Origin: an uncultured Chloroflexia bacterium
GTDB lineage: Bacteria; Chloroflexota; Limnocylindria; QHBO01
NCBI GenBank assembly: GCA_963753125.1
Contig: CAVWAU010000004.1
Location: forward strand, 54,445-118,444
Length of the DNA stretch: 64,000 bases
Reading direction: 5' to 3'
Positions 16,310 to 42,374 of this stretch are shown here, piece by piece. The notes beneath the pieces were generated by a model, which saw only the letters and a list, made by a program, of their open reading frames with translations, was not told the DNA's origin and made no database searches. Each line of letters starts with the position of its first letter. Positions within the stretch are counted from its first letter, which is position 1. Both the position numbers and the translations under genes were made by a program.

Positions 16310-16481
16310 ACCTCGTGGCTAGTCGCGAGCCTCGCGTTGCGGCTGGCTGGTTCGAGCGACACCAGCCGGATCGGACCGGATCTCAGTTGCTAGCCTGCGC
16401 GATTCACCCGATGACCTGGGAACGCGCCGAGGGAGCTACGAAGCCGGTCCTGAGGTGCCCCCTGTGCGGCGGCGCTGATCT

Positions 16482-16751
16482 TCATCGGTCTTGCTCGAGC
16501 CAGCTCATGCCGGCGAGATGCACGCGGGTGCGTTCACGGATCGTCGTCACGACGACCACGACGTTGCCGCACGTCGGGCATCGCGCGACATCCCCGGCGC
16601 TCCGGTAGACCAGCATTGCAGCCACCGGATGCACCGAGCCACAGCCGGCGCAGGTGCCGCGCTCATCGGTCATCTCGCGCCCGAAGACCTCCATCAGCGC
16701 GCCGCCGAGCGCGTTGCCGTCGACGTGCGTGTCTCCCGTCATGCTTCTCAC
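16482..16751 (-). CDS. DUF6510 family protein (CxxC...CxxC small protein)
   Basis: MTGDTHVDGNALGGALMEVFGREMTDERGTCAGCGS...VARCPTCGNVVVVV. The GTG start overlaps the reconstructed stop of the upstream reductase gene (GTGA). Confidence 0.7.
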   Translation of the reverse strand: MRSMTGDTHVDGNALGGALMEVFGREMTDERGTCAGCGSVHPVAAMLVYRSAGDVARCPTCGNVVVVVTTIRERTRVHLAGMSWLEQDR

Positions 16752-17501
16752 CCTCCGGTGGGACCGAATCGCTCGGTCAGAATCCGTCCAGGCTCATGGC
16801 CGAGCTCGACCAGGACCGATGCGACCGCCTCCACGAACCCGGTCGGCCCGCAGACGTAGTGTCAGCGGCTGCATGTCCGGCGGCCAGGCCAGCTGCGACA
16901 CGGCCTCGCGGTCGAACCGACCGCGGCGACCGCTCCAGTCCTCCGGCGCCGATCGGGTCAGGGTATGGGTGATCGAAACGGCATCCTCGTCGCGGGCGAT
17001 GGCCGCCAGCTCATCGGCGTAGATCACGTCCTCGGCGGTGCGCCAGGAGCACAGCATCCGGACCGGGACGTCGCTGCGCGCGCCGACACGCGCGCGGAGC
17101 ATCGCCATCAGCGGCGCGACTCCGCTGCCGCCACCGATCAGCCCGAGCGGGCCGCCACGGTCGGGCTCCCAGACGAAGTAGCCGCCGATGGGACCGCGCA
17201 GCTCGACCTTGTCGCCGACCACCAGGACATCGGTCAGATAGGTCGAAACTTCGCCGTCCTCGAGCCGCTCGACGGTGATCGTCACCCGGCTGCCGTCCTG
17301 CGGCGTCGCGATCGAGTAGCTGCGCTGCGCGCGATAGCCATCCGGGGCGGTGAGCCGCACGTCGATGTGCTGCCCCGGCAGGTGGCCCGCCCAGTCGGGG
17401 ACGTCGAAGGTCAGGCTCTGGACGCGTGGCGTCTCACCGACCCGGTCGACGACCTCGGCGATCGCCCAGGTCAGTCGCCGGAGTACCGCTGTTCCCGCCA
17501 T
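16748..17501 (-). CDS. ferredoxin-NADP reductase-like FAD/NAD-binding oxidoreductase, with an apparent +1 frameshift near 16858
   Basis: RSYSIATP is the FAD motif and GPLGLIGGGSGVAPLMAML is the NAD motif. The in-frame ORF (16794-17501) ends in junk (LTLRLRADRVRGGG). Shifting one base restores the conserved C-terminus ...PLTYVCGPTGFVEAVASVLVELGHEPGRILTERFGPTGG* ending at TGA 16748-16750. Confidence 0.7.
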
Positions 17502-18076
17502 GGATCTCCGTAGTTGTGATAGCCGTAGCCCTCCCAGAAGCCGGGCGCATCGGCGTCGCGCAGCTCGATGGCGCGGACCCACTTCGCGCTCTTCCAGAAG
17601 TAGAGGTGGGGGACCAGCAGGCGCGCCGGACCGCCGTGCTCGGGGTCGAGTGGCTCGCCGTCGTACTGGTAGGCGATCCACGCCTTTCCATCGGTCAGGT
17701 CTGCGAGCGGCAGGTTCGTCGTGTAGCCGCCGAACGAGTGCGCCATGACGTGGTCGGCCGCGGTCTGGACGCCGTCGAGGAGGGTGTCAACGGGCACGCC
17801 GCGCCACTTCGGGTCGAGCTTCGACCACTTCGTGACGCAATGGATGTCGACGGTGACGTCCTCGGCCGGCAGGGAGGTGAACTCCTCCCAGCTCCAGCCA
17901 CGTGGCTTGTCCACCTGGCCGATGATCTCGAAGCGCCATTCGTCGAGGCCGATGCGCGGCGTCGGCCCGGCCGACAGGACGGGGAAGTCGTGGGTCACGT
18001 ACTGGCCGGGCGGCACCCGGTCGGCCGGCGCATCCGCCGCCTCGCGTCGTCGAAACCCGCGTGAGATGAACGTCAT
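17471..18076 (-). CDS. sulfite oxidase-like molybdopterin-dependent oxidoreductase (MsrP/YedY-like catalytic subunit)
   Basis: 201 aa. HCVTKWSKLDPKWRGVPVDTLL and GPARLLVPHLYFWKSAKWV are Mo-cofactor-domain motifs. Its 3' end overlaps the reductase start by about 31 bp. Confidence 0.8.
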   Translation of the reverse strand: MTFISRGFRRREAADAPADRVPPGQYVTHDFPVLSAGPTPRIGLDEWRFEIIGQVDKPRGWSWEEFTSLPAEDVTVDIHCVTKWSKLDPKWRGVPVDTLLDGVQTAADHVMAHSFGGYTTNLPLADLTDGKAWIAYQYDGEPLDPEHGGPARLLVPHLYFWKSAKWVRAIELRDADAPGFWEGYGYHNYGDPWREQRYSGD

Positions 18077-18086
18077 CGGCGCTGCC

Positions 18087-19174
18087 TCAGCCGAAGGTGA
18101 AGCAGTATGCCTCGACGCCCGGCTCGAGGAACTCGATCTCGAAGACGCGCTCGGAGATCGGGCCCTGCTGCCGGATCAGCTGGTAGAGGCGCTGTTGCTG
18201 CGCTGTGCCGTCTCCCGACTCCTCGACGTCGGAGCCGTGGGAGGCACCCGGTGCCTGGCCATCGAGGCGAACGCGGAACGGCACGGAGGTCCCGCGCGCG
18301 GCGGGCCCCATGACGAGGTGCACGTCGCGGGCATGGAACCGGAAGGCGATGCGTCCATTGGCGTCATTCAGGACGGCCGCATGCTGCGCGATCGTCCAGT
18401 TCCCGATCGGCGCCCATCGGTTGAGTCGGAGGCCGGAAGCCTCGGGGTATGCGTGCGCCGTATCGGCCTGGAGGTCGTCGGGTGACGCGAAGCCCGTGGT
18501 CCTGCCGTTGCCGAGATACGTCTCCGGTGAACGGAGGTTCTGCCAGTCGGCATCGGCCTCGAGGCCGTCGGGCGCCGACCTGGACCAGCGCGCCGTCGAG
18601 GCCCTCGGCTCCAGCGTCCATCAGCAATTGCTGAATGACCATCTCGGTCATGGCGAACTCGCGCTCACCGTAGTGGTGGTAGCGAAGGCGGCCCTCCGCA
18701 TCGGCGATATAGGTGGCCGGCCAGAAGTTGTTGGCGAATGCTCGCCAGACCGCGTAGTCGTTGTCGAGCGCGATCGGGTACTCGACGTTCTCATCCTTCG
18801 CCGCGGCGATGACGTTCTCGCGGTCGTGCTCGAAGCCGAACTCCGGGGTATGGACGCCGATGACCGTCAGGCCCTGGTCGCGATACTTCGCTTCCCAGGC
18901 GCGCACGTACGACAGCGTCCGCAGCCAGTTGATGCAGGTGTAGGTCCAGAAGTTGACGAGGACGACGCGACCCCGGAGTGCCTGCCGGAGTCAGCGGCTC
19001 CGAGTTGAGCCAGCCCGTCGCGCCCTCGAACCCCGGGAGGCGACCCTCATCAGGCAGCGTCGCCCCGCCGGCCTCCTGCCGGTGAATCAGCGAGCGGATG
19101 AGTTGGCCAAGTTCGGAGGGTGGGGCCAGGTCGGCGGTTTCCGTGCTCGGCTGCGCTGGCGTGGTGGTGGTCAT
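18087..19174 (-). pseudogene. DipZ-like secreted thioredoxin/redoxin-domain protein, disrupted (two frameshifts; CxxC reads CINW)
   Basis: Three frame segments on the minus strand. N-terminal MTTTTPAQ...GWLNSEPLT (GGAGGA RBS, ATG at 19174); a Trx-fold segment LRGRVVLVNFWTYTCINWLRTL...WPATYIADAEGRLRYHHYGEREF; and a C-terminal domain ...EADADWQNLRSPETYLG...VHLVMGP...YQLIRQQGPISERVFEIEFLEPGVEAYCFTFG* ending at 18087. Joining them requires a +1 shift near 18975 and a -1 shift near 18555. Confidence 0.65.
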
Positions 19175-19190
19175 GTCTCCTCCGGACGGC

Positions 19191-20438
19191 TCAGTTGGCT
19201 GCCGTGCGCAGCGATGTGAAGGCTGTACGCAGCTCGGCCGAGAGCAGATCGGGCTGCTCCCAGGCCGCGAAGTGGCCGCCCTTCTCAAGCTCGTTGTAGT
19301 GGATCAGCTGGGGATAGGCCCGCTCAGCCCAGCTTCGCGGGGCCTGATACTGCTCGCCGGGAAAGACGCTCACCGCCACTGGAATGCCGACACCCTTGGC
19401 GTTGAAGAAGCCGCCGCGGTACTCCCAGTAGAGACGCGATGCGGAGACCCCGGTGTTCGTCAGCCAGTACAGCGTGATGTTGTCGAGGACCTCGTCCCGC
19501 GTCAGCTCCCTGGTCGTGCTCGCCGTCCGGCCGAGGGCCGCGACGACCGCTGCCGCGGGCTGGCCGCCGGCATCGTTGTGGTCGAGAAGCCAGGCTGCCA
19601 GGCCGACAGGTGAGTCGGCGATGCCGTAAGCGTTTGCGGGCGTGACGCCATCAACCTCGCATAGTCGACCTGCTTGAACGTCCTGACCAGCTGCTCGTAC
19701 GCCCGATGCTTCCTCGGCGGAAAGGCCCTCGGGTGGCGGGTCGCCGGCAAGAAGCGCTCTATCCACATCGGCCGGGACGGTGCCTGGCATGTTCGTGTGA
19801 ATTGCGAGCAGCCCTTCCGGTGCCTGCAGGCCCATCTGGTCGACGACGAAGGCACCCCAGTCGCCGCCCTGGGCGACATAGCGGGTGTAGCCCAGACGCT
19901 TCATCAGCTCAGCCCAGGCGCTGGCTATACGTTCGGGGCCCCAGCCGGGGCTCGTTGGCTTCCCGGAGTATCCGTATCCGGGCATCGACGGGATGACGAC
20001 GTCGAAGGCATCCGATGCGCGCCCTCCGTGGGCGGTCGGATCGGTCAGAGGGCCGATGATCTTGAGCTGCTCGATGATGGAGCCGGGCCAGCCATGCGTG
20101 ACGATCAGAGGCAGGGCGTTATCGCTCTTGGAGCGAACGTGGATGAAATGGATGTCCAGCCCATCGATCTCGGTGATGAACTGCGGCAGCGTGTTGAGTT
20201 TCGCCTCCACCTTGCGCCAGTCGTATTCGGTCGCCCAATAGCCTGCAAGTTCTTGGATGATGGCCAGCGGCACGCCCTGCGACTGGTCGGCGACCGTCTC
20301 CTTCTCGGGCCACCGTGTCATGGTGACGCGCCGCCGCAGCTCCTCGAGGGACTCATCTGTGACCTTCGCCATGAACGGACGAATGGTCGTTTCGTCGCGC
20401 GTGGCCGAGCGTTGTGGTGTTGGAGCGATGGTGGACAT
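19191..20438 (-). CDS. epoxide hydrolase (alpha/beta hydrolase with EH N-terminal domain), copy 1
   Basis: 415 aa. IRPFMAKVTDESLEELRRRVTMTRWP is the EH N-domain and HGWPGS is the oxyanion motif. AAGGAGG precedes the ATG. Confidence 0.85.
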   Translation of the reverse strand: MSTIAPTPQRSATRDETTIRPFMAKVTDESLEELRRRVTMTRWPEKETVADQSQGVPLAIIQELAGYWATEYDWRKVEAKLNTLPQFITEIDGLDIHFIHVRSKSDNALPLIVTHGWPGSIIEQLKIIGPLTDPTAHGGRASDAFDVVIPSMPGYGYSGKPTSPGWGPERIASAWAELMKRLGYTRYVAQGGDWGAFVVDQMGLQAPEGLLAIHTNMPGTVPADVDRALLAGDPPPEGLSAEEASGVRAAGQDVQAGRLCEVDGVTPANAYGIADSPVGLAAWLLDHNDAGGQPAAAVVAALGRTASTTRELTRDEVLDNITLYWLTNTGVSASRLYWEYRGGFFNAKGVGIPVAVSVFPGEQYQAPRSWAERAYPQLIHYNELEKGGHFAAWEQPDLLSAELRTAFTSLRTAAN

Positions 20439-20485
20439 GGCTCTGCCTCCTTGGCGCTCGGACGCCTGCCCGCGCGCGGCCTCAA

Positions 20486-21689
20486 TTACCGCAGTGAGCT
20501 GAATGCAGCCCGCACTTCCTCGGAGAACAGCTGCGGCTCCTCCCAGGCGGCGAAGTGGCCGCCCTTCTCGGCCTCATTGAAGTAGGCGAGGCCGGGGTAG
20601 ACCGCCTCGACCCAGCTGCGCGGGGAGGCCCAGATCTCGCCTGGGAACGTCGTGAAGCCGACCGGCACGCTGACCGGCGGGGGGGGCTGGCCGCTGGCAA
20701 GCGATGCGGCGAGCGCTCGTGCGTCCTCCCAGTAGTTTCGGGCCGCCGAGACTGCGGTGCCCGTGATCCAGTAGAGCGTGATGTTGTCGACGATGCTCTC
20801 CCGGGTGAGGCCGCCCACGGGCGCCCCGTCGACGAACGCGCGCGGAGATCTTGTAGTAGCTGTCGGTGTCGTGGTCGAGCATCCAGGCCGCCAGCGCGAC
20901 GGGGGAATCCAGCAGGGCGTAGCCGATCGTCTGTGGCCGCGTTGCCATCTCCAGGAAGTAGCCGAAGCCGTCCTGCCTGAACGTCCCGACCGCCTGGGCC
21001 GCCTTGCGCTCCTCTTCGGACTCCCTGGGCAGTTGATCGCCGATGGCGAGCACCGCCGTGAGCAGGTTCAGGTGGTAGCCGGCCAGACCTTCGACCGCCT
21101 GGCGGCCCATCAGGTCCGTGACGAGCGCACCGACGTCGCCGCCCTGGGCTACGTAGCGGGTGTAGCCGAGGCGGTGCATCAGCTCCGCCCACGCGCGTCC
21201 GGTTCGGGCGGCGTCCCAGCCGAGCTCGGTCGGCTCGCCGGAGAGGCCGTAGCCGGGCAGGGACGGCAGCACCAGGTGGAATGCGTCCTCGGCTGTGCCA
21301 CCGTGCGCGGTCGGGTCGGTCAGCGGGCCGACGGTCTCGAGCAGCTCGATGACCGAGCCGGGCCAGCCATGCGTCACGATCAGCGGCAGCGCATTCTCGT
21401 GGCGCGACTTGACGTGGATGAAATGGATCTCCACCCCATCGATCTCGGTCTTGAACTGCGGCAGCGCGTTCAGCCTGGCCTCGATCCGACCGAAGTCGTA
21501 GTCGGTCGTCCAGAAGCGCGCCAGCTCCTTGGTCGTCGCCAGCTGGACGCCCTGCGATCGATCCTCGACGAGCTCCTTGGTGGGCCAGCGCGTCGCCGCG
21601 ATACGCCGGCGCAGATCGTCGATCTGCTCCTGTGGAATCTTGACTTGGAACGGCCGGATATCGGTCGCGATGTCAACGGCGATGGTCAT
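20486..21689 (-). CDS. epoxide hydrolase, copy 2, with an apparent 1-bp insertion near 20843
   Basis: MTIAVDIATDIRPFQVKIPQEQIDDLRRRIAATRWP...HGWPGS...DSYYKIS, then a shift, then RAFVDGAPVGGLTRESIVDNITLYWITG...EKGGHFAAWEEPQLF. An extra base sits in a GCGCGCG / CC run. GAAGGAGG RBS and ATG at 21689. Confidence 0.75.
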
Positions 21690-21812
21690 GACGACCTCCT
21701 TCGGGAAGGGACCTGAACGCAGCACGGATCTCGGTCGTGACGACGTCCGGCTCGGGCGGCCAGGCCGCGGAATGGTGCCTCTCCACTGTGGGCCTGCGGC
21801 CGCGAGACGACA

Positions 21813-21826
21813 GTGACCGCGGTCAC
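21813..21826 (+). promoter_or_regulatory. CRP/FNR-type palindrome GTGACCGCGGTCAC (GTGA-N6-TCAC)
   Basis: Perfect 14-bp inverted repeat in the 254-bp divergent intergenic region, about 118 bp upstream of the Crp/Fnr-family gene and about 124 bp upstream of epoxide hydrolase copy 2. Confidence 0.45.
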
Positions 21827-21943
21827 CAAAGTCCTTGCCCGGGTGTCTATTCTTTGTAGGGGGCCGCGATCGGACGGCACGGATGACCATCGGAACCCCA
21901 ACCAGATCCGCCACTTGCCGGCCGACCCTCCGGGCGGCCGGCG

Positions 21944-22610
21944 GTGACGTCGAGGAGTGCGTTGGGGGATAGCTTCCTGGCCGACGTGGATCCGCGCGTC
22001 GTCGATGCCCTGACGCGGCGAGCCGTCGTTCAGCACGTCGACGCCGGTGAGGTCTTCGTCTCGGAGACGGACTCGCAATGGACGGGGATCGTCCTCTCGG
22101 GAATGGCGCGGATCTTCCTGCGAACCCCATCGGGTCGCCAGGTCACGCTTGCGCACCGCGACGGCCGGCGGATCGATCGGCATCGCGGCCGTGTTCGCGG
22201 CGGGCTCGATATCGGCCCAGGCGATCACGGAGTGCGAGCTGCTACGCCTGGACACCCAGAAGCTCGTGAAGCTGGCACACGCCCATCCGGACCTGGCGAT
22301 GGCGATCGCCCGCGAGCTGAGCGTCCGCCTGATCGAGACGTATCGCGAGATCGTGATCCAGGCCCATGGATCCGTGCACCAGCGGCTGGCACGCCAGCTG
22401 TTGCACCTCAGCTCCATCCGGGGTCCTCAGCGCCACCTCGCCGTGAAGATGAGCCATAGCGAGATCGCGGACGCGGTGGGCTCCGCCCGGGAAGTGGTCA
22501 CACGCCACTTGGACAGGTTCCAGGCCGATGGGATGCTGCGGCTGGAGCGTGGCCAGGTCACCATCGTGGATCCCCTTCGCCTCCACGAGGCCGCCAGGGA
22601 CACGGGCTAG
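21944..22610 (+). CDS. Crp/Fnr family transcriptional regulator, with an apparent 1-bp insertion near 22170
   Basis: The N-terminal cNMP-binding segment (VFVSETDSQWTGIVLSGMARIFLRTPSGRQVTLAHRDG) and the C-terminal segment with HTH (SIGIAAVFAAGSISAQAITECELLRL...KMSHSEIADAVGSAREVVTRHLDRFQADGML) are in frames offset by +1. Confidence 0.7.
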
Positions 22611-22777
22611 CTTTAGCGCGACCGATTCGTGGGGTATCGCGATGAGTCCCTGTCAGGGACCTGCCCCCGATGGACATGAGCAAGGTAAGGGTCGTGCAAG
22701 TCGTCTGTCGCGCCAGCCTCAGGAGGCTTCAGAAGGCACCACGGATACCTCCAAATCGCCGCAGCTGAAACGAGTGG

Positions 22778-24161
22778 GTGACGAGAACCGTCCCAGCACA
22801 AATGTTCCACTCCCATCGTCACCTCTCCGTTGGAATCGTCGCAGTGATCCTCGTGTGCCTCGGCTGCACCTCGCCCGCCGCGCAAGATGGCCAGGTCCCA
22901 TCGGCCACACCGGACGCGACGCCGAGCCTCGACGCGAACTCTCCACAGCCGTCGGACCAGGCGAGCACCGACGGGCTCGTGGTGCGGCTCGATGGTGCGG
23001 GCGAGGCCGGCCGGGTCCACCTCCTCACCGTTTTCGCCGATGGTCGCGTCGTCATCGCAAGACCTGACGGCCAGGGCGGGATGAGTGCACCCGTGGAGCG
23101 GCGCCTGACAGCGGCCGGGGTCGAGCTTGTTCGTGACGAGTTGGCTGCGACTGGCCTGACCGATAGCGTCCGCCAACTACATGCCCGTCGCCAACCCTGG
23201 CGTCGAGGCGCCGGGATACGGCGGCGCGGGTCCTTCGCTGGAGGTCGGCCTGCCCGACGGTGGGAAGGCGGTCATCACCTGGTACCTGTTCGCCGATACC
23301 GAGGAGGACTACTTCCAGCCGCAGCCGGAGGCCGAGGCGCTCGACGCCCTTGCCGCGCGGCTGTCGAGGCTCGAGGAATTGCTCCCGGCGGACGCCTGGG
23401 TTGATGGGAGCAGCGATGCCCCACCGCTCGCGTTCGAGGCACCCGACGGCATCCTGCCGCCGAACAGCATCATCGCAGTGGTCGCGGATGGCCTGCAGCT
23501 GCGTTCCGAGCCAGGTCTTGCCGCTCCGGTGACGGGCCTCGCATCGACAGGCGACCAATTCCAGGTGCAGGGTTGGTTCGGACCTGTCGAGCGTGATGGC
23601 CTCGACTGGTACAGGTTGGGGTCGTCGACGGTCGGCGACCTGGATGAGTGGGCGGCCGCCGGATCTGGCGCAGACCAGTACCTGGAGCTCGTGCCTCCCG
23701 ATTGCCCCGTGGGGGACCCGGACCTGGCGACGGTCATCAACATGGGTAGCGACTGGGATCGGCTTGCCTGTCTCGGCGATCGGTCGCTGACCTTCGAAGG
23801 CACGTTCGGCTGCGGTGTCTGTGACGGCACCATGGCGGGAGACTTCGAGCCATTCTGGCTGGCGCATCCAATGGTCCCCCAGTTCCTGTGGGCCGACTTC
23901 CTGGCCGGTGTGGGGCCCCTGGGAGTGCACGTGGCGCCCGACTCGGGTGTCGAGTTCCCGGCCGTGGGATCGATCGTGCGCGTGACCGGGCACTTCAGCG
24001 ACCCGGCATCGACGACCTGCTCGATGTCGACGTTTGATGGCGAGCTGGCAATCGCAGTCGATCAGAGGACAGCCGAGCTGTACTGCCGCGAACGCTTCGT
24101 GATCGACGCTCTGGAAGTCACCGGGACCGATCCGAACTACTCCGATCCGTACAATCCCTAG
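22778..24161 (+). CDS. secreted SH3b-like / Cys-rich domain protein (paralog A), probably one gene with a shift near 23180
   Basis: Signal peptide (VAVILVCLGCTSPAAQ). The first frame ends in Arg/Gly junk after ...LTDSVRQL. The second frame (ATG 23181) carries IIAVVADGLQLRSEPGLAAPVTGLASTGDQFQVQGWFGPVERDGLDWYRL (SH3b-like) and a Cys-rich C-terminal domain. It may instead be two separate ORFs (22778-23404 and 23181-24161). Confidence 0.5.
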
Positions 24162-24221
24162 CTGGGCCCTGCGAGGGTACGCTCGATCGCGCGGATGTTA
24201 GTCGGCTCTGGATCGCGGCAA

Positions 24222-24960
24222 TCAGCGACGCTTCATCCCGAGGTAGCGATCGCGATCGGCTTTGTCGAGCTTCTCGATGGAATAGCGGAGCATGACCCGT
24301 GGCATCGTCGAGGCATGGGCGTCGAGGAACGCGGCGTGCCGAGCTTGATCGCGCTTTCCGGCCTCGCGCAGCATCCAGCCAACGGCCTTGGCGACGAGAT
24401 CGTCAGGGTCGTTCGCGAGCGTTTCCGCGATCCGATAGGTGTCGTCGAGCTGATTCCGCCGGATGAATGCGTAGGTGCTGAGGATCGCGGTTCGCCGCTC
24501 CATCGGTCTGGAAGAGCGCGCCAGCTCCTGCAGGATCTCCCGCGGCTGGTCGACCAGGTACTCGCCGACACAGTGGATCGCGCTTCGGTCGACGAGGTCC
24601 CAGGTGTCGATCCGGTCATGCCGCCGGATGTAGAGGTCGAACAGCGTCGCGCCGCCGCTCCGCCGTCGTCTTCCTGTCCCGCGCCTGCCAGTCCATGATG
24701 CTGACGGCGCCGACCCGCACCGGGTGATCGTCGCTCTCGAGCAGCTGCTCGATCTCGGCCGGCGGCATCGCCTGGTACTCCTTGGCCAGCTTGAAGATCT
24801 GGCCCATACCGATGCCCGCGTAAGGTTCGACCCCCTGATGATCCGGCGGGCGCAGGGAGGCGAGATCGTTCATGAACGCCCGCGCCGTGGGAGTCGCATC
24901 GTCCGCCACGCGCCAAGCATAGATAACCTGGTCAGGCGACCTCGAGCTGGGTGTAGCCAA
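24222..24960 (-). CDS. AlkD-like DNA alkylation repair protein (HEAT-like-repeat alkylpurine DNA glycosylase), with an apparent frameshift near 24640
   Basis: IFKLAKEYQAMPPAEIEQLLESDDHPVRVGAVSIMDWQARD, then a shift, then GGATLFDLYIRRHDRIDTWDLVDRSAIHCVGEYLVDQPREILQELARSSRPMERRTAILSTYAFIRRNQLDDTYRIAETLANDPDDLVAKAVGWMLREAGKRD. The start is 24960 or 24873. Confidence 0.7.
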
Positions 24961-25087
24961 CCTCGAGGAAGGCCGGCACCGTCGTCGCCGGAAGCCTGTT
25001 GGTGGCGCGCATAGGAGCGTTCGGAAGTAACACTCCGCGGACCGCGAGCGTCAGTCGGCTATCCCTCTCCACCCTGAGGCCCGAGCC

Positions 25088-26074
25088 ATGCCCGCCGCAG
25101 GCGGTCCCCAGTCCCGGACACATACAGTGCCGGTTGTCAATCGTCGTCTGATCGCCACTGTCGTCCTTGGCGTAATCCTGACCGCATGCCAGGCCGCAAC
25201 CGTGACTTCCCCCTCGTTGGACGAGTCACCGACGCCAGAGCCGAGTGCGAGCAGCCGACCAGAGGCCATGCCTTCGAACATGCAGACGGCTAGCCCGGCG
25301 GCCACGGCGCAGCCCACAGCCTCGCCTGATGTGGCCGTCCGGGCCGACACCGTTGTCGCCACGACGGTCGAGGGGCTATCGGTCCGGCGGAGTCCGGGGA
25401 CCGAAGGCGAGCAGATCGGCTTCCTGGAGCTCGGGACGGTCGCCTTCGTGCTTGACGGCCCTACCGATGTCAACGGCGTGCCGTGGTATCGCGTCACCGG
25501 CATGGGATTGCCGTACCTCTCAGGCTGCGCGACGAACCCTCCCGATCAGCCGATCACCTGTCCAGGATTCGAGGGCTGGGTGGCCGGCGCGAATGAGGCC
25601 GGAGATCCGTGGCTCGCGCCGACGGACCCTGGCGCTTGCCCTGAGCCAACCATCCGGGGAATCAGCGAGGCCGGATACACGTGGCGGCTCGTCTGCTGGG
25701 CGGATGAACCGATCACCTTCGACGCCTGGTGGCCGGTGGTCCCCGACGGGGTCGGCCTTGGTGGGTTCTGCCCGGTGAACAGCGAGCCGGGTGGCTTCCT
25801 CTACTGTCAGGTTAGCAATACCGTCGGCCTGACAGCCTCACCCGATGAAGAGTTTGTGTTCCGCCTCTCCCTGAGCATTGACCCGGCCAGCGGAGTCACC
25901 ATGCCGGCGCGTGGACAGTCGGTCCGCGTGACGGGCCAGTTCGACCACCGGCGGCTGACGACTGCGCTGACTTGGCTCGGCAAGTTGAGGATCCGCTCCA
26001 GGAAGTCTTCAGATGCCGGCTCCAATTCGTGCCCACATCTGTCGAGCCGCTCGGCAGCTGATCCGGCCGACTAG
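25088..26074 (+). CDS. SH3b-like / Cys-rich domain lipoprotein (paralog B); the C-terminus is possibly frameshifted near 25945
   Basis: Lipobox VILTAC. TVVATTVEGLSVRRSPGTEGEQIGFLELGTVAFVLDGPTDVNGVPWYRVTG is SH3b-like. The Cys-rich domain aligns with paralog A. An alternative frame after VTGQFDH gives PAADDCADL..., matching PASTTCSMS of paralog A. Confidence 0.65.
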   Translation: MPAAGGPQSRTHTVPVVNRRLIATVVLGVILTACQAATVTSPSLDESPTPEPSASSRPEAMPSNMQTASPAATAQPTASPDVAVRADTVVATTVEGLSVRRSPGTEGEQIGFLELGTVAFVLDGPTDVNGVPWYRVTGMGLPYLSGCATNPPDQPITCPGFEGWVAGANEAGDPWLAPTDPGACPEPTIRGISEAGYTWRLVCWADEPITFDAWWPVVPDGVGLGGFCPVNSEPGGFLYCQVSNTVGLTASPDEEFVFRLSLSIDPASGVTMPARGQSVRVTGQFDHRRLTTALTWLGKLRIRSRKSSDAGSNSCPHLSSRSAADPAD

Positions 26075-26077
26075 GCT

Positions 26078-26503
26078 TTGCTGGATCCGATGACGCCTGT
26101 ACTCATGCTCGTCACCCTGGGTGGCATCCTCCTTCTGCTGGCTGGATTCGTTGTGCTGCTCTATCGGCTCGGAGGATTCCATCCGACTGCCCGGGAGCGC
26201 CGGAGCTGGCTCATCGCCGGTGCGGTGTTGCTCGCGTGGGTCGTGCTCCTCGCCTTCGTCGGACCCCTGCCGCCATCCATGTCGTTGCTGCTGAGCGGAG
26301 GTACCCTCGTCCTCGCCCTTTGGTGGTGGCGGAACGGCCGTTTTCGCCTCGACGCCGTGCCAGCCGACTCCCGCGAGGAGGTTGCGCGGAGGCGCGAGTG
26401 GATGCGGATGCACCCGGGTCTGCTCATTGGCCTCGGCACCGCCTTCACCGTCCTGATGGTCGTTTGGGCACTCACGGTTGTGCTCGTCACGCGACCCGGT
26501 TAG
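26078..26503 (+). CDS. hypothetical membrane protein (4 TM)
   Basis: 141 aa with hydrophobic helices and a TTG start. Confidence 0.5.
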   Translation: MLDPMTPVLMLVTLGGILLLLAGFVVLLYRLGGFHPTARERRSWLIAGAVLLAWVVLLAFVGPLPPSMSLLLSGGTLVLALWWWRNGRFRLDAVPADSREEVARRREWMRMHPGLLIGLGTAFTVLMVVWALTVVLVTRPG

Positions 26504-26555
26504 GCCTCGCAACTAGAACAGCCCGTCGATCCTGACTGGCGACTACCATCGGGAC

Positions 26556-29500
26556 GTGACCCTGCGAGCCCCTGACTCGAGCCGGGACGGCGACTTCGTC
26601 CACCTCCACGTCCACTCGGAGTTCAGCCTGCTCGACGGGCTGAGCCGCATCGGTGAGATGACCCAGCGGGTCGCCGAGCAGGGGATGCCGGCGCTGGCGC
26701 TCACCGATCACGGGTCCATGTACGGCGTCATCCCGTTCTACGCCGCCGCCAGAAAGGCGGGCATCAAGCCGATCATCGGCATCGAGGCCTACGTCGCCCC
26801 TCGTGGCATGACCGACAAGGAGGGCAAGGCCGACGCCGACTACCACCACATGATCCTGCTGGCCAAGGACGACGTCGGTTATCGCAACCTCCTGGCGCTC
26901 ACGACGGCCGCGCACCTGGACGGCTACTACTACAAGCCGCGGATCGACAAGGAGCTGCTCGCGAAGCACGCGCAGGGGCTCATCGGTACGTCAGCCTGCC
27001 TCGGTGGGGAGGTGCTGAAGCGGCTGGCGCAGGGCGACGAGCAGGGAGCGGCGGAGGCCGCGGACAGCTATCGGTCCATCCTGGGCGACGGGAACTTCTA
27101 CATCGAGATCCAGGAGCACGGGATCGACGACCAGGCCCGGCTCCATCCGCAGCTGGTGGAGCTGGCGCGGCGCCAGAACATCCCGCTGCTCGCGACGAAC
27201 GACACGCACTACACGCACCCGGAGCAGTACGAGGCGCACGACCTCCTCGTCTGCATCCAGACCGCGTCGAACCTCGACACGCCCGGGCGGATGCGCTTCG
27301 AGAACAACGAGTTCTACCTCAAGCCCGCATCCGAGATGCGCCGCCTCTTCAACGGCGAGCTGCCCGAGGCCTTCGACAACACGCTGGTCATCGCCGAGCA
27401 GTGCAACGTGTCGCTCGACTTCGAGGGGCTGCGCCTGCCGCACTTCGAGGTCCCCGAAGCAGAGACCGATGCGTCCTGGCTGCGCAAGGAGTGCGAGCGC
27501 GGATTACCGGAGCGTTACCAGTCGCTTACCGATGAGATCCGCCACCGGCTCGACTACGAGCTCGGGATCATCGATCGGATGGGGTACAGCAGCTACTTCC
27601 TGATCGTGGCCGACTTCATCCGCTTCGCCCGCGAGCGGGGGATCATGACGACCTGCCGGGGGAGCGCGCCGGGCTCGATCGTCACCTACAGCCTTGGAAT
27701 CACGCCGGTCGACCCGCTCGAGTACGGCCTGCCGTTCGAGCGCTTCCTCAACCCCGACCGCGTGACGATGCCGGACATCGACATCGACTTCCAGGACAGC
27801 CGCCGCGACGAGGTCATCGAGTACGTCACGCGCAAGTACGGCGACGACCGGGTGGCGCAGATCATCACCTTCGGGACGCTCGGCGCGAAGGCGGCCATCC
27901 GCGACGTCGGCCGGGCGATGGGCCTGACCTATGCCGAGGCCGATCGCGTCGCCAAGGCGGTCCCGCTCGAGCTGAACATCTCGCTCGACCGCGCGGTCGA
28001 GACGAGTCCGCAGCTGCGCGAGCTGATGGCGGGCGACGATCGGGTCGACAAGCTCATCGGCATCGCGAAGCAGCTCGAGGGAGTGAGCAGGCACGCGTCC
28101 ACCCACGCCGCCGGGATCGTTATCTCACGCGAGCCGCTGACCGAGATCATGCCGCTCCAGCGCGCGACCGACGGCCGCACGACGATGACCCAGTTCGAGA
28201 TGCACGCCTGCGAGGCGCTCGGCCTCCTGAAGTTCGACTTCCTGGGCCTCATCAATCTCACCATCCTGGCCGATGCCATCGACCTGGTGGAGAAGCACCG
28301 AGGCGTCAGGCTGGACGTCGACACGCTGCCGCTCGACGACGCGAAGACGTTCGAGCTGCTCGGCCACGGCGACACGATGGGCGTCTTCCAGCTGGAGGGC
28401 TCCGGGATGCGCCGATACGTCCGCGAGCTCAAGCCGACCGAGGTGCGCGACCTGGCCGCCATGGTCGCCCTCTTCCGCCCGGGACCGATGGCGAACATCC
28501 CCGCCTACATCCGCCGCAAGCATGGTCTCGAGCCGGTGACCTATCTCCACGACTCGCTGGAGCCGGCGCTGAAGGACACCTACGGCATCTTCGTCTACCA
28601 GGAAGACATCATGACCGCGGCCATCGCGATGGCCGATTACACCGGCCCCGAGGCGGACAACCTCTGCTACGCGATCCGCAAGAAGAAGGAGGACGTCCTC
28701 CGCCAGCACGAGGCGAAGTTCAAGGCCGGCGCGAAGAAGAAGGGGATCCCGCCGCACATCGTCGATAAGGTCTTCGCGGAGTTCGAGCCCTTCGCCCGAT
28801 ACGGGTTCAACAAGGCCCACGCCACCTGCTACGGGCTGATCGCCTACCAGACGGCGTACCTCAAGGCGAACTACCCGATCGAGTTCATGACCGCGGTCAT
28901 GAACGGCTTCCGGGAGCGCGCCGAGAAGGTCGCCGCGGTCATCGCCGAATGCCGGCGGCTGGGGATCGAGGTCCGTCCGCCGGACGTGCAGAAGTCCCTG
29001 GCCCTCTTCGCGGTGGAGACCGATGCCTCCGGCGCCCCCGAGGCCATCCGCTTCGGGCTCGCCGCGATCAAGAACGTCGGCGAGGGCGCGGTCGATGCGA
29101 TCGTCGCCGTCCGCGACGGGGGAGGGGAGCCCGGCCCGTTCGCGTCGCTCGACGACTTCTGCCGGCGCGTCGAACTCCACGTCCTGAACCGGCGGGTGCT
29201 CGAGTCGCTGATCAAGGCCAACGCCATGGCGTCCCTCGGCAACGCGGGCGCCCTGCTCGAGGCACTGGATGCTTCGTTGGAAAACGGGGCGCGCCACCAG
29301 CGCGACGTGGCGGCGGGCCAGTCGACCCTGTTCGACCTCTTCGCGATCCCCGCGTCGAACGGCGAGACGGCATTCCTTGGCGGAGGCGAGGAGATTCCGA
29401 AGCGCGAGCGGCTGCGGTGGGAGAAGGAGCTCATCGGTCTATACCTGTCGGACCACCCGTTGAGCGAAATCGAGAAGGAGCTGCCCGAGTACGCAACCGC

Positions 29501-30260
29501 GATGGTCGTCGACCTGGCCGAGGAGGCCGATCAGACCAAGGTCACGCTGGGCGGGATCGTCGCCGGATCGAGACGAGTCATCACCCGCGCCGGCTCGACG
29601 ATGCTCGTCGCGACGCTCGAGGACCTTACCGGCACGGTCGAGGTCGTCGTCTTCCCGAAGGTCTACGAGCAGACCGCGCCGGCGTGGGCCAACGACTCGA
29701 TCGTCCTCGTCTCGGGCCGTCTCGACCGGCGCGATGAGGCTCCCCAGATCCTGTGCGAGGCCGTCTGGGCCTGGGACGATGCCGTGCGGATGGGCGTCGA
29801 GGGCTTCGGCGCCGAGCGAGACAGGCTCCTGGCGCCGCGCGGGCGGTGGGAGCGGAACGGGCGCTCATCGGTCCGTGAGCCGATCCCGGTCGAGGCGCCG
29901 TCGCCCGTCGCGATGGCGGTGGGCGCTCCGGAACCGGCCGAGGAGCCGCCGGTGCCGATCGACTCGGTGCCACTCCAGGCGGCTCCCACCGGATCGGCGG
30001 CGACCGTATCGGTTCTCCTCGGTGACGACGTCCCGAACGACCGGCTGCTCGGGGCGATCGAATCGGTCAAGGGCGCGCTGGCGGCCCGACCGGGCCCGCT
30101 GGCGGTGACCCTGTCGATCTCGGTCGCGGGCGCATCTCGCCAGGTCCGGCTGCCGGACCGAGTGGCCTGGGACGAGCGGCTCGAGGATGCGGTGCGCCGC
30201 GCGGCCGGGGTGCCGGTCAGCGTCCATCTCCAGCCGGCGATCGAGGCGCGCGGCGCCTGA
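26556..30260 (+). CDS. dnaE: DNA polymerase III subunit alpha (DnaE1)
   Basis: 1234 aa. N-terminal PHP domain (FVHLHVHSEFSLLDGL), polymerase core and C-terminal OB fold. GTG start. Confidence 0.95.
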   Translation: MTLRAPDSSRDGDFVHLHVHSEFSLLDGLSRIGEMTQRVAEQGMPALALTDHGSMYGVIPFYAAARKAGIKPIIGIEAYVAPRGMTDKEGKADADYHHMILLAKDDVGYRNLLALTTAAHLDGYYYKPRIDKELLAKHAQGLIGTSACLGGEVLKRLAQGDEQGAAEAADSYRSILGDGNFYIEIQEHGIDDQARLHPQLVELARRQNIPLLATNDTHYTHPEQYEAHDLLVCIQTASNLDTPGRMRFENNEFYLKPASEMRRLFNGELPEAFDNTLVIAEQCNVSLDFEGLRLPHFEVPEAETDASWLRKECERGLPERYQSLTDEIRHRLDYELGIIDRMGYSSYFLIVADFIRFARERGIMTTCRGSAPGSIVTYSLGITPVDPLEYGLPFERFLNPDRVTMPDIDIDFQDSRRDEVIEYVTRKYGDDRVAQIITFGTLGAKAAIRDVGRAMGLTYAEADRVAKAVPLELNISLDRAVETSPQLRELMAGDDRVDKLIGIAKQLEGVSRHASTHAAGIVISREPLTEIMPLQRATDGRTTMTQFEMHACEALGLLKFDFLGLINLTILADAIDLVEKHRGVRLDVDTLPLDDAKTFELLGHGDTMGVFQLEGSGMRRYVRELKPTEVRDLAAMVALFRPGPMANIPAYIRRKHGLEPVTYLHDSLEPALKDTYGIFVYQEDIMTAAIAMADYTGPEADNLCYAIRKKKEDVLRQHEAKFKAGAKKKGIPPHIVDKVFAEFEPFARYGFNKAHATCYGLIAYQTAYLKANYPIEFMTAVMNGFRERAEKVAAVIAECRRLGIEVRPPDVQKSLALFAVETDASGAPEAIRFGLAAIKNVGEGAVDAIVAVRDGGGEPGPFASLDDFCRRVELHVLNRRVLESLIKANAMASLGNAGALLEALDASLENGARHQRDVAAGQSTLFDLFAIPASNGETAFLGGGEEIPKRERLRWEKELIGLYLSDHPLSEIEKELPEYATAMVVDLAEEADQTKVTLGGIVAGSRRVITRAGSTMLVATLEDLTGTVEVVVFPKVYEQTAPAWANDSIVLVSGRLDRRDEAPQILCEAVWAWDDAVRMGVEGFGAERDRLLAPRGRWERNGRSSVREPIPVEAPSPVAMAVGAPEPAEEPPVPIDSVPLQAAPTGSAATVSVLLGDDVPNDRLLGAIESVKGALAARPGPLAVTLSISVAGASRQVRLPDRVAWDERLEDAVRRAAGVPVSVHLQPAIEARGA

Positions 30261-36092: not shown

Positions 36093-37013
36093 TCAGCCGC
36101 CGGATGGATCCTGCGTGAGGTCCTCGTCGAACCACTCCTCGCTGAGCTCGGTCAGGGTCCCATCTGCGTGCATCTCGCCGATGATCCTGTCGATCTCGTA
36201 CAGGAGCGCGGCGTGCTCGGGCCCGGCCTTGTCGACCGCCACAGCCAGGTTCTCCTGGTAGAGGGGATCACTGATGCGCACAACGGGCTGACCCTCTTCG
36301 GTTGCGGCATCGATGACCGTGCCGGAGGTGATGAAGAGGTCAAATTCCTCCCGGCCGGCGGCGATCTCCTCGATGCAGTTCGCGTCGACCGGTCGGGTCA
36401 CGGGCTCCGCGCCCTCGGGAAGGTCGAAGGGGACGTCCTCGACGGACGTCAGGCCGGATCGCGTGCTGGCGCCGATGTCGGCGGGCGTGTAGTAGTACGG
36501 CTGCGTGAAGCTGAACAGCTCCTTCCGGTCCGTGGTGATCGTCATCGATCCCACGCTGATGTCCCAGCGCTCGGACCAGCTTCCCGCCGTGATGATCTCC
36601 CAGTCCTGATGCTGGAACTCGGGCTCGACGCCGAGCCGGGTTGCGATCTCGGTGCCGACGTCGATATCGAATCCGACCCACGAGCCGTCCGGTTCGCGGA
36701 ACGACTGCGGCTTATAGTTGGCCTCGGTCGAGATCCGCAGGACGCCACTCTCCATGACCGTCTCGAGGAGGTCTCCCGCGGTGTCGGCCGGTTCCTCGAT
36801 CGGGTCCTGGACGTCCGGCTGAAGGTCTCCGTTCAGCCAATCGAGGTATGTGGTCGCCTCGCCCACGCAGACGACGGCTGGAATGTCAGCTGCCGCACCG
36901 CCGTCCGTGGCGCCGGCGCTCTCGTCAGGGCTCTCGCCGCTGTCTGCGGGCTGACACCCTGCTAGCACAAGGATCGCGACCGGCAGGATCGCGAAGCGTC
37001 GGTAGTTCTTCAC
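36093..37013 (-). CDS. amino acid ABC transporter substrate-binding lipoprotein
   Basis: Start inferred at the GTG (VKNYRRFAILPVAILVLAGC, lipobox LAGC), followed by an SBP_bac_3-like domain. The upstream 39 codons of the ORF are likely non-coding. Confidence 0.75.
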   Translation of the reverse strand: MKNYRRFAILPVAILVLAGCQPADSGESPDESAGATDGGAAADIPAVVCVGEATTYLDWLNGDLQPDVQDPIEEPADTAGDLLETVMESGVLRISTEANYKPQSFREPDGSWVGFDIDVGTEIATRLGVEPEFQHQDWEIITAGSWSERWDISVGSMTITTDRKELFSFTQPYYYTPADIGASTRSGLTSVEDVPFDLPEGAEPVTRPVDANCIEEIAAGREEFDLFITSGTVIDAATEEGQPVVRISDPLYQENLAVAVDKAGPEHAALLYEIDRIIGEMHADGTLTELSEEWFDEDLTQDPSGG

Positions 37014-37138
37014 GAAGCGTCTCCTCAAATGCAGTGACTCGCCGCCCCTCCGCAGCGTCAGTCGTTCCCGGTCGGCACGTTGTAGCACTCGTCCGGCGCC
37101 GCGGCAAGGCGCGCTGGTGCATCGGTACACTTTCGCGC

Positions 37139-38239
37139 ATGACCTCGACGCTGCCGACGACGCCGCTCAGTCGCGCCTCGACCCTGCCGAAGCGGTACTT
37201 CCTCGATCCCGACATCCTCGAGGCCGAGAAGGAACGGATCTTCGGCAGCACCTGGCAGCTCGTCGCAAAGACCGATGAGCTCCAGCGCATCGGCGACTTC
37301 GTGCCGGTGACGGTCCTCGACGAGCCGGTCGTCATCACACGCGGCCTGGAGGGGGAGCTGCGGGCCTTCTACAACGTCTGCCGGCATCGGGCCGGGCAGG
37401 TGGCGCTCTCCAAGGGCAATCGCAAGTCGCTCCAGTGCCGATACCACGGCTGGACCTACGGGCTGGACGGGTGTCTTCGCGCCGCTCCCGAGATGGAGGA
37501 GACCGAGGGATTCTCCAAGGACGACTTCGGGCTGATGCCGGTTCGCGTCGACGCCTGGGGCCCGTTCGTGTTCGTGTGCCTATCGGACTCGGCGCCGGCT
37601 TTGCGCGACATGATCGGGGCGATTCCCTCGGAGGTCGCAGCGGCCGGCTACGACGTGGAGTCCATGCGACTGGTCGAGCGGCGCGAGTACGTCGTCGAAT
37701 GCAACTGGAAGGTCTACGTCGACAACTACCTCGAGGGCTACCACCTGCCGATCGCGCACCCGCAGCTCTACAAGGAGCTCGACTACGACGCCTACCGCGT
37801 CGAGGAGTTCCGGTACTACAGCAAGCAGCACGCGCCGATCCGGGAGCTGAAACCGGGGGAGGAGATCGGGGTCGACCGTCGCTTCCTGCGTCAGCCTGGC
37901 GCCGAGGACTCGGCGCTCTACTTCTGGCTGTTCCCGAACACGATGTTCAACATCTACCAGGACAACATGTCCTCGAACGTCATCCTGCCGCTGGGCGTGG
38001 ACCGCACGCTCACGATCTTCGAGTGGTTCTTCGCCGACCCCGGTTCCGGCCCCGGCTGGGAGTCGATGCAGCAGACGATCGCCTTCTCCGACGAGATCCA
38101 GCAAGAGGACATCGTCATCTGCGAGCAGGTTCAGCGCGGCCTCCGATCACGCTCTTACGAGGCCGGCCGCTTCTCCGCCAAGCGCGAGAACGGCGTCTAC
38201 CACTTCCAGAACCTCGTCCGCGAGTTCCTCGGGAAGTAG
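37139..38239 (+). CDS. Rieske [2Fe-2S] aromatic-ring-hydroxylating oxygenase alpha subunit-like protein
   Basis: CRHRAG...CRYHGW is the Rieske motif, with mononuclear-iron EGYHLPIAH further on. The real ATG is at 37139; the 463-aa ORF N-terminus is antisense to the SBP gene. Confidence 0.85.
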   Translation: MTSTLPTTPLSRASTLPKRYFLDPDILEAEKERIFGSTWQLVAKTDELQRIGDFVPVTVLDEPVVITRGLEGELRAFYNVCRHRAGQVALSKGNRKSLQCRYHGWTYGLDGCLRAAPEMEETEGFSKDDFGLMPVRVDAWGPFVFVCLSDSAPALRDMIGAIPSEVAAAGYDVESMRLVERREYVVECNWKVYVDNYLEGYHLPIAHPQLYKELDYDAYRVEEFRYYSKQHAPIRELKPGEEIGVDRRFLRQPGAEDSALYFWLFPNTMFNIYQDNMSSNVILPLGVDRTLTIFEWFFADPGSGPGWESMQQTIAFSDEIQQEDIVICEQVQRGLRSRSYEAGRFSAKRENGVYHFQNLVREFLGK

Positions 38240-38256: not shown

Positions 38257-38387
38257 GTCAGATTCAGTTGGCAGCCGCGGTATCTGCGTCATCGGTCCGC
38301 CGGCCCGTCAACTGCGGCTGTGACCCTGCAGGGCGGCGACTTCTGACGCGTTTCGCATCGGTAGTGCGGCGGTCACCTGAATCTGAC
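38257..38387. repeat. MITE-like 131-bp element with ~26-bp terminal inverted repeats, copy 1
   Basis: Left end GTCAGATTCAGTTGGCAGCCGCGGTA. Right end GGTAGTGCGGCGGTCACCTGAATCTGAC. Confidence 0.6.
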
Positions 38388-38737
38388 AGGCTGTGGAACC
38401 AGAGCAGGCCCGAGGCGGGAAGCGTTGGGGTTCGGAGCCATCGCCGCGTCGAGCCGCCCCGGATCGCGAACGTCTCGAGAAGCGCCTCGTGCCGAGCGAC
38501 GATGCGGCGGTTCGTGCTGTCCTCCGCAAGCACCAGCGCCCTCACCGCGGACGACGGCGGCCCAAGGCCGAGCTCTCGCGAGATGACGCCGGCGAGCCGC
38601 ATTTTCGTATCGAGCCGATGGAGCGTCTCCTGGAGATTCCCCAGCCTGGACTTCACCTCGACGATGAGCAGGATCCGATGGACCGGATGCCACGCAACGA
38701 GGTCGCAGCTGCCTCGATCGCCGTAGTGGTTGAACGT
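38264..38737 (-). pseudogene. PD-(D/E)xK nuclease-like (YraN/UPF0102-like) gene remnant lying between two copies of the element
   Basis: Stop-to-stop frame on the minus strand. TFNHYGDRGSCDLVAWHPVHRILLIVEVKSRLGN... carries the D...EVK motif. The C-terminal 41 codons are read from element copy 1, and an in-frame TGA sits immediately upstream. Confidence 0.3.
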
Positions 38738-40793: not shown

Positions 40794-41084
40794 GGAGGGC
40801 GAGCGGAGCTCCTCGATGCATCCGGGGGGTGGCGACGAAGCCTAGCACGCAGGTGGCCGCCGGCGGTGAGAACGCCGACGGCCGGTAGCCGATCCCGCAA
40901 CGGACCGACCGTCACCCAGTCTATCGGCCTCTACGTCATCCGGCCCGCGCCTCCCCGGACGCTTCTCACAGGACCGATACCGTCGGGCGCCCGATGGGCG
41001 CCATCGGTCCATGGCCGTACCGTGGCTGCACGACGGCGCACCCAATGCGCCACCGAACGACACGGTCCAGGAGGTCCCCACGAG

Positions 41085-41267
41085 ATGAACGGAACGACGA
41101 CGACCAACGTCCATGGCCGCTCCGTGCAGCTCGCGGTCATGGCCGCACCATCGGCGAGCGTCGCCGAGGCGGTGGCTGAGGCGCGACGCCGGCACGAAAC
41201 GCCCGGCGCGTGGATTTCCCGCCCGGTTTCCGGGCCCTCGCTTCGCACGCAGGCGGCCGCCACCTGA
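41085..41267 (+). CDS. hypothetical small ORF (60 aa)
   Basis: AGGAGG lies 10 nt upstream of the ATG. MNGTTTTNVHGRSVQLAVMAAPSASVAEAVAEARRRHETPGAWISRPVSG. There is no family support. Confidence 0.25.
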   Translation: MNGTTTTNVHGRSVQLAVMAAPSASVAEAVAEARRRHETPGAWISRPVSGPSLRTQAAAT

Positions 41268-41403
41268 GCGTCGAGCCCCTCGCCGCGCGCCGGTTGTGCG
41301 GCCGCCTCGCGGTGCCGCGGAGCGCCGCTGCGCGAGGATCGCGTGCGGTCGCGGCCCAAGATCTGCATGATTGCGGCGGCGTTCAATCGCTTGGAGGTGC
41401 CCC

Positions 41404-41769: not shown

Positions 41770-41934
41770 GCATCGCATCCTCAGGGGAAACCTGTTCAGC
41801 GTCCACCTTTCCGGCGGGGCCTCTTGCTGTGGAGTGGATACTGCCGTCGATGCAGGCGGAGTCAGGCGAGAAGGTGGCCGCGTTGATCCGGGTGGCAGGC
41901 TGACGGGCGAGCAGGGGGCCGTACACTCGCCGTA

Positions 41935-42276: not shown

Positions 42277-42374
42277 ACGATCCGCTTGCCGTCCGTTTGC
42301 CGGAGGTCCGAACCGAACGGACGTTCAGCTTGGCCACGAGACCGAATCCACCCCGTTCCGTGCACGAACGGAGG

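Follow-up and report, generated by a model that had tools for sequence, protein, structure and literature searches.

The 64-kb window analyzed in this work (the whole stretch of DNA under study) comes from a 68% GC genome of Candidatus Limnocylindria (Chloroflexota). A first-pass annotation had reported at least 8 interrupted genes within 9.3 kb of this DNA and at least 12 frameshifts in the window as a whole. Are these interruptions mutations of the organism or errors of the assembled sequence?

Number and distribution of the indels

In total, 13 single-base indels (10 insertions and 3 deletions) were identified in the window, disrupting 11 genes that are well conserved apart from these lesions. 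The stretch between positions 16860 and 25945 holds ten of the indels, in 8 genes, while the remaining three affect polA (~45378), a zinc-ribbon/cyclase/STAND gene (50841–50899) and an ABC-2 permease gene (~60181). The presence of 10 of the 13 indels within 9.3 of 64 kb is clustering far above the chance expectation (binomial p = 8e-7). Between 16.5 and 26.5 kb there are ∼11 genes, 8 of which carry indels. Every frameshift listed by the first-pass annotation was found, each within ∼20 nt of the position given there, but a compensating pair of indels (19629/19710) in an epoxide hydrolase gene had been overlooked.

The first 16.7 kb and the dnaE gene had been described as free of shifts. In agreement with this, dnaE is intact, and no shift was recognized in the first 16.7 kb, either with a 3-periodic Markov frame model or by comparison with the homologues of relatives over the parts that these cover. 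Likewise, no shift was seen in the 10 kb on each side of the segment 16480–26555.

Several other candidates were rejected. The Markov frame switches at positions 3638/4152, 30744, 35214, 43095, 53358, 55405, 58270, 59569 and 62943 are ordinary gene junctions, with stop and start codons present. The apparent shifts at 27579–29478, 32101, 34862, 36082, 37013–38161, 39371, 40674 and 51975 represent frameshifts in the relatives or off-frame shadow ORFs, which are typical of high-GC DNA. An indel at 16729 relative to locus L019 does not disrupt a gene, as it sits at the start of the next one.

The disrupted genes

The gene of an FNR-like oxidoreductase (16748–17501, minus strand) carries an extra T at position 16860 (+1; previously placed at ∼16858), which was located by alignment of DNA and protein with L019. 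The shift throws the final 36 codons (YVCGP...FGPTGG) out of frame, and this tail is 100% identical to that of L019; in the corrected gene, a match to NAD_binding_1 crosses the junction. Comparison with loci L002 and L003 placed two extra bases (∼18577 and ∼18976, both +1; earlier ∼18555 and ∼18975) in a DipZ-like thioredoxin-fold gene (18087–19174, minus strand). Deletion of both restores the Redoxin domain and the full Thioredoxin_10 domain.

Two epoxide hydrolase genes follow. EH1 (19191–20438, minus strand) lacks one base at 19629 (-1) and has an extra base at 19710 (+1). These changes compensate each other: the ORF remains open, with 27 codons (81 nt) out of frame, and the alternative frame encodes HRAYEQLVRTFKQVDYARLMASRPQTL, matching the relatives. 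In EH2 (20486–21689, minus strand), the same comparison with L002 and L003 revealed an extra C at 20843 (+1), exactly where it had been expected; the out-of-frame part of this gene is 90% conserved, compared to 80% for the in-frame part.

The Crp/Fnr regulator gene (21944–22610, plus strand) contains an extra T at ∼22150 (+1, T to TT; L002 and L003 used for comparison, earlier estimate ∼22170), and a cNMP_binding match crosses the junction. The extra base in the gene of lipoprotein A (22778–24161, plus strand), previously assigned to ∼23180, was found at ∼23161 (+1, GAT[A]GCG); both halves of the protein are contiguous in four homologues of 438–460 aa (P0038–P0041) that cross the junction. In the AlkD-like DNA alkylation repair gene (24222–24960, minus strand), an extra G at 24646 (+1; formerly ∼24640) interrupts a stretch invariant across 5 relatives. 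A DNA_alkylation match crosses this junction, the out-of-frame part is 91% conserved, compared to 81% for the in-frame part, and the gene adjoins dnaE in six relatives. Finally, a shift that had been considered probable in the gene of lipoprotein B (25088–26061, plus strand) was recognized through paralogy: with the missing C restored at ∼25945 (-1, CCC read as CC), the protein has a C-terminus similar to the one in lipoprotein A.

Outside the cluster, polA (44600–47480, plus strand) has an extra base at ∼45378 (+1; earlier ∼45390), where the 5'-3' exonuclease domain ends, as revealed by comparison with at least 10 relatives; no restart codon was found close to the shift. The double-zinc-ribbon/adenylate cyclase/AAA (STAND) gene (47477–51012, minus strand) lacks one base within 50841–50899 (-1), a range that includes the previously suggested ∼50860. 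The shift separates the double zinc ribbon from the cyclase domain, and the orthologues in L064 and L018 encode both in a single ORF. The ABC-2 permease 2 gene (60088–60964, minus strand) has an extra base at ∼60181 (+1; GGCGGTC on the plus strand; earlier ∼60170), which leaves its final ∼30 codons out of frame; it is a single ORF in the short-read JGI contigs L083 and L092.

Shifts of this kind might be bypassed in vivo by programmed ribosomal frameshifting or transcriptional slippage, for which nothing speaks beyond the presence of the shifts themselves. They are of both signs, on both strands and in 11 unrelated genes, no slippery motif is common to the sites, and in every orthologue from the relatives the ORF runs through the corresponding site uninterrupted. 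Judging from these continuous orthologues, this explanation may be regarded as effectively refuted, with a negligible chance of being correct.

Character of the lesions

All 11 genes regain a full-length ORF with one or two single-base edits each, and Pfam domains cross the junctions once the frames are corrected. No in-frame stop codons were found in any of the affected genes, nor multi-base deletions, all 13 lesions being of 1 nt. The pieces downstream of the lesions show 86–100% identity to relatives, and the out-of-frame parts are conserved equally to the in-frame parts or more. In the one affected gene compared, AlkD, there was no significant excess of window-private substitutions, which would hint at low quality or decay: the counts are small, corresponding to 3.75% (2.3–4.8% in relatives), with 1.68% (1.3–3.5%) in dnaE.

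Nearly all of the shifts had been described as lying in GC-rich short runs. This was not borne out, since most are insertions outside homopolymers and short runs: just 3–4 of the 13 indels lie within runs of two or more bases, the inserted bases are mostly not duplicates of the adjacent base, and no homopolymer or shared-motif signature was found across the sites. Homopolymer indels are the classical signature of nanopore sequencing. The non-homopolymer insertions observed here point to a low-depth or strain-mixed consensus, and not to a classical homopolymer-length miscall.

Frameshifts in related loci and sequencing technology

Twenty intact genes of the window were used as queries to compare 27 Microflora Danica nanopore-only loci with 52 other MAG loci. 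The nanopore-only relatives contained 24 frameshifts in 201 kb of conserved genes, distributed over 10 of the 27 loci, compared to none in 269 kb of the other MAG loci. For dnaE alone, 7 of 27 nanopore-only loci were shifted versus 0 of 53 others (Fisher p = 2.8e-4), and no frameshift was flagged in any relative among the 16 JGI contigs compared. In the window and in the nanopore-only relatives alike, the lesions reach essential or highly conserved genes: polA in the former and dnaE in the latter. Most of the frameshifts in these relatives (roughly 85% by eye) insert a single base at a site other than a homopolymer, and they form local clusters; in L048, two of them lie within 42 nt. The indels of the window match them in type and spectrum. 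The first-pass annotation had taken the damage to polA as favoring indel error, and this view gains support, as the same type of lesion was seen only in nanopore-only relatives (24 versus 0).

A number of the relatives used for reference are nanopore MAGs that are error-prone in their own right. The argument stands nonetheless, since errors cannot create an intact ORF.

The proteins of the window are assigned to the same contig of 1,225,059 bp (NCBI/ENA, unannotated), as with MFD MAGs, and a single contig of 1.2 Mb suggests a long-read source. We infer that the window itself is nanopore-only. In the MFD-LR pipeline, assembly with Flye (meta, nano-hq) is followed by one round of Medaka, without short-read polishing (PMC12313526), and polishing is needed for nanopore bins of less than ∼40-fold coverage (PMC9262707).

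It is conceivable that most of the indels are consensus errors and a minority are real, e.g., the EH1 pair or the shift in an accessory lipoprotein gene. The EH1 pair keeps the frame open over 81 nt, like a tolerated real change, and true rearrangements are found nearby. However, the pair alters a stretch of 27 codons that is conserved in all relatives, close pairs of frameshifts also occur in error-prone relatives such as L048, and no feature sets any one indel apart from the others. A mixed origin is unlikely.

The variable segment upstream of dnaE

All 10 clustered indels are located inside a structurally variable segment upstream of dnaE (16480–26555). L004 and L013 have the AlkD-like gene and then dnaE immediately after a small zinc-ribbon gene, while L002, L003 and L019 contain subsets of the segment in different orders. 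Homology to the small zinc-ribbon gene ends at ∼16480, leaving a truncated copy (16411–16480); an epoxide-hydrolase C-terminal remnant (21673–21777) is the second real structural remnant. Both are genes separate from those bearing indels, and their presence demonstrates that real genome flux occurs in this segment. A conserved 63-bp element (16411–16473) was considered as a tRNA or an island attachment site, but ARAGORN and Rfam gave no match; it is a 5' fragment of the small zinc-ribbon gene.

The segment could be a truly decaying, pseudogene-rich island, with recent real indels under relaxed selection. It is accessory, is rearranged among relatives and holds the two gene remnants; indels are present in 8 of its ∼11 genes and in none of the flanking ones, and real lesions could also accumulate in accessory genes through relaxed selection. 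Several observations make such decay improbable. The hit genes contain neither nonsense codons nor larger deletions, and AlkD, the one gene tested, has no clear excess of private substitutions. Insertions outnumber deletions 10:3 at non-repeat sites, the opposite of the indel spectrum of bacterial pseudogenes, which is deletional and driven by slippage. The AlkD-like gene is hit despite its conserved position beside dnaE in six relatives, and the same type of lesion occurs outside the island in polA, the cyclase gene and the permease gene. Moreover, nanopore-only relatives have identical lesions in dnaE, which the short-read relatives never show.

A particular form of this explanation, in which the flexible island by dnaE underwent a recent insertion-biased, non-slippage burst of frameshifts in a soil Limnocylindria population, conceivably tied to the Pol I gene, which would be broken at the same time, is very improbable; if true, it would constitute a localized mutational process not previously described.

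Origin and consequences of the frameshifts

Considering the above, the frameshifts are most probably (probability of about 0.85) single-base consensus errors of a noisy long-read metagenome assembly and not mutations of the organism. The first-pass annotation had favored long-read consensus indel error concentrated in a low-quality stretch, and the single-base nature of the indels, the lack of nonsense codons and the conserved tails are in accord with that reading. According to this scenario, the assembly would be of nanopore type, without short-read polishing, and the genes would be intact in the cell, one base having been added (10 cases) or lost (3 cases) by the assembler or polisher. The accessory segment at 16.5–26.5 kb, presumed to be structurally variable among co-occurring strains, would have been built from reads that were mixed, or fewer than those of the flanking core genome, and therefore the local consensus quality would be lower and errors would accumulate there. 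The location of the cluster in the variable segment suggests such a low-coverage or strain-mixed stretch, and we infer that local coverage or strain mixture caused the clustering.

The shifts would then have no biological import, since the genes are most likely intact. Nevertheless, the ORF calls are split or truncated for 11 genes of the window, including polA and 8 of the ∼11 genes in the 16.5–26.5 kb segment, and the frames should be corrected before function, pseudogenes or pangenomes are inferred from these calls. In nanopore-only MAGs of this clade there is ∼0.1 frameshift per kb of conserved coding sequence, compared to none in short-read MAGs. Such errors can be ∼10-fold denser in strain-variable segments, mimicking gene decay in accessory islands.

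Comparison with known systems

As at programmed frameshift sites (dnaX, prfB, IS3-family transposases), the genes resume in another frame after a single-base offset, but the shifts of the window are not conserved in orthologues, lack a slippery sequence and are mixed in direction and gene family. With pseudogene clusters of decaying or flexible islands, the locus shares interrupted adjacent accessory genes, a rearranged segment and two truncated remnants. It differs from them in its freedom from nonsense mutations, multi-base deletions and a clear substitution excess (AlkD only tested), in its bias toward insertions, and in that conserved genes (AlkD-like, polA) are hit.

The third comparison is with the indel (frameshift) errors of nanopore-only assemblies and MAGs, an artefact that the IDEEL test is meant to reveal (Sereika et al., 2022, PMC9262707; MFD-LR catalogue, PMC12313526). 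The sites in the window, a sequence of presumed nanopore origin, are mostly non-homopolymeric and dominated by insertions, unlike classical nanopore errors. In both, however, single-base indels split conserved, even essential, genes, and a one-base correction restores them; in unpolished long-read MAGs such errors are locally clustered, and short-read assemblies of the same clade are free of them.

Frameshift inventory and lesion anatomy

The reading frame was checked in three independent ways: a GC3 frame plot and Viterbi decoding of the whole window with a 3-periodic second-order Markov model; alignment, as DNA and as protein, to loci of relatives retrieved around dnaE and uvrB; and comparison with database homologues and Pfam. 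All shifts listed in the first-pass annotation, made from the sequence without database searches, were recovered by these approaches. Single extra bases were located at 16860 in an FNR-like oxidoreductase gene, at ~18577 and ~18976 in a DipZ-like gene, at 20843 in epoxide hydrolase 2 (EH2), at ~22150 in a Crp/Fnr gene, at ~23161 in the lipoprotein A gene, at 24646 in an AlkD-like DNA alkylation repair gene, at ~45378 in polA and at ~60181 in ABC-2 permease 2; single bases were missing at 25945 in the lipoprotein B gene and within 50841-50899 in a zinc-ribbon/cyclase/STAND gene. Absent from the earlier list was a compensating pair in epoxide hydrolase 1 (EH1), a missing base at 19629 and an extra base at 19710, between which 27 codons are out of frame and the ORF remains open; translated in the other frame, this stretch matches the relatives' conserved peptide exactly. 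In total, the window contains 13 single-base indels in 11 genes, and 10 of them, in 8 genes, lie within 9.3 kb (binomial p = 8e-7). As previously noted, no shift was detected in the first 16.7 kb (frame model; relatives' homologues over the parts they cover) and dnaE is intact; none was found in 26.5-40 kb.

An indel at 16729 relative to the related locus L019 was rejected as damaging, because it lies where the next gene begins. This small CxxC-containing gene (16482-16742, minus strand; MTGDTHVDGNALGGALMEVFG...), directly downstream of the FNR-like gene, is conserved with L019 and is intact although the indel lies near its start.

A one-base edit (two for the DipZ-like gene and EH1) restored a single full-length ORF in each affected gene. 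After correction, the Pfam domains NAD_binding_1, Redoxin with Thioredoxin_10, cNMP_binding, DNA_alkylation, 5_3_exonuc, and DZR with Guanylate_cyc were continuous across the former junctions. None of the affected genes contained an in-frame stop codon. The pieces downstream of the shifts were at least as conserved as those upstream (EH2, 90% vs 80%; AlkD, 91% vs 81%), the FNR-like tail being 100% identical to L019, and window-private substitutions showed no clear rise in AlkD relative to dnaE. Insertions accounted for 10 of the 13 indels. Only three or four of the 13 lengthened or shortened a run of identical bases, while the remainder were inserted bases differing from both neighbours; the G at 24646 was inserted in a stretch invariant across five relatives. 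Programmed frameshifting is excluded, as every orthologue is a continuous ORF and no motif is common to the sites.

A structurally variable segment upstream of dnaE

All ten clustered indels (16860-25945) lie inside 16480-26555, a segment that is structurally variable among relatives; no shift was seen in the 10 kb flanking it on either side. In loci L004 and L013 the AlkD-like gene comes immediately after a small zinc-ribbon gene, with dnaE next, and L002, L003 and L019 carry portions of the segment in differing order. The zinc-ribbon gene, complete in L004, L013 and L002 (about 66 aa), retains only its first ~23 codons in the window (16411-16480, plus strand; MTWERAEGATKPVLRCPLCGGA), and homology stops at the left boundary of the segment (~16480). 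This fragment reflects either a real truncation caused by rearrangement or a join made during assembly. At 21673-21777 (minus strand), immediately upstream of EH2, lies what remains of the C-terminal part of a third epoxide hydrolase (HHSAAWPPEPDVVTTEIRAAFRSLPEG). The epoxide hydrolase paralogues are arranged differently from those of L002 and L003, which suggests recombination within a tandem array. Given this structural variability and the gene remnants, 16480-26555 is flexible, accessory DNA in which real rearrangements have taken place.

The lipoproteins A and B (22778-24161 and 25088-26061, plus strand) are paralogues with a lipobox, an SH3_3-like region and a Cys-rich C-terminal domain that has no Pfam match. 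Their family comprises more than 130 metagenomic homologues, the few named ones belonging to Limnocylindria or Chloroflexota.

Other features of the window

The gene at 38264-38737 (minus strand) lacks the N-terminal XRE-type HTH half found in its homologues in L021, L001 and L041. A stop codon immediately precedes the conserved TFNHYGDRG and the sequence upstream is unrelated. This looks like a real 5' truncation rather than a one-base shift. Two stretches of ~600 bp (40817-41370 and 41770-42375) show a coding signal in no frame and match no Rfam family; they are separated by a small ORF (41371-41769) and adjoin tRNA-Leu(CAA) (42375-42461).

Frameshifts and sequencing technology among relatives

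The decisive comparison for separating artefact from biology is that of sequencing technology. The window has a GC content of 66-75%, and its dnaE (26556-30260) encodes a protein 70-95% identical to those of Candidatus Limnocylindria/Chloroflexota MAGs. Eight window proteins were found verbatim in a public protein collection, all on one unannotated NCBI/ENA contig of 1,225,059 bp; for such a lineage, a contig as long as 1.2 Mb points to a long-read assembly. Of the 80 related loci, 27 originate from the Microflora Danica long-read catalogue, in which nanopore reads were assembled by Flye (meta, nano-hq) and given a single Medaka round, without short-read polishing (PMC12313526). Polishing is still needed for nanopore bins below ~40-fold coverage (PMC9262707).

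When 20 intact window genes served as queries, frameshifts numbered 24 in the 27 nanopore-only loci (201 kb of aligned coding sequence; 10 loci affected, at most 5 shifts per locus) and zero in the 52 other MAG loci (269 kb). Taken alone, dnaE was shifted in 7 of the 27 nanopore-only loci and in none of the 53 others (Fisher p = 2.8e-4). Around uvrB, no relative's frameshift was flagged in the comparison with 16 JGI metagenome contigs. By eye, roughly 85% of the shifts in the nanopore relatives were single-base insertions outside homopolymers, and the shifts were often closely spaced; the lesion spectrum of the window is the same.

Of the eight dnaE frameshifts found in nanopore-only relatives, six (in L019, L036, L044, L047, L048 and L054) fall in residues 854-975 of 1234, which suggests a local error hot spot; the equivalent stretch of the window's own, intact dnaE is ~29100-29480.

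Consensus errors versus gene decay

Recent genuine pseudogenisation of the island would fit its accessory nature and the true gene remnants present there. Decay of bacterial pseudogenes is expected to produce nonsense mutations, longer deletions and a deletional, slippage-type spectrum, and to spare conserved genes. None of these marks was seen in the window, and polA, with no restart codon nearby, is also broken; pseudogenisation is thus improbable. A mixture of errors with a few real changes is likewise unlikely. From the association with technology, the matching spectrum, the absence of decay marks and the broken polA, we therefore conclude, with a probability of roughly 0.85, that the window indels are consensus errors. 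The first-pass annotation had preferred this reading, which the technology comparison, the shared spectrum and the lesion anatomy support. Lower or strain-mixed read support in the variable segment would best account for the clustering of the indels. The frameshift cluster is not a biological feature. The ORF calls of the 11 genes require frame correction, and the 16480-26555 segment should not be counted as gene decay.
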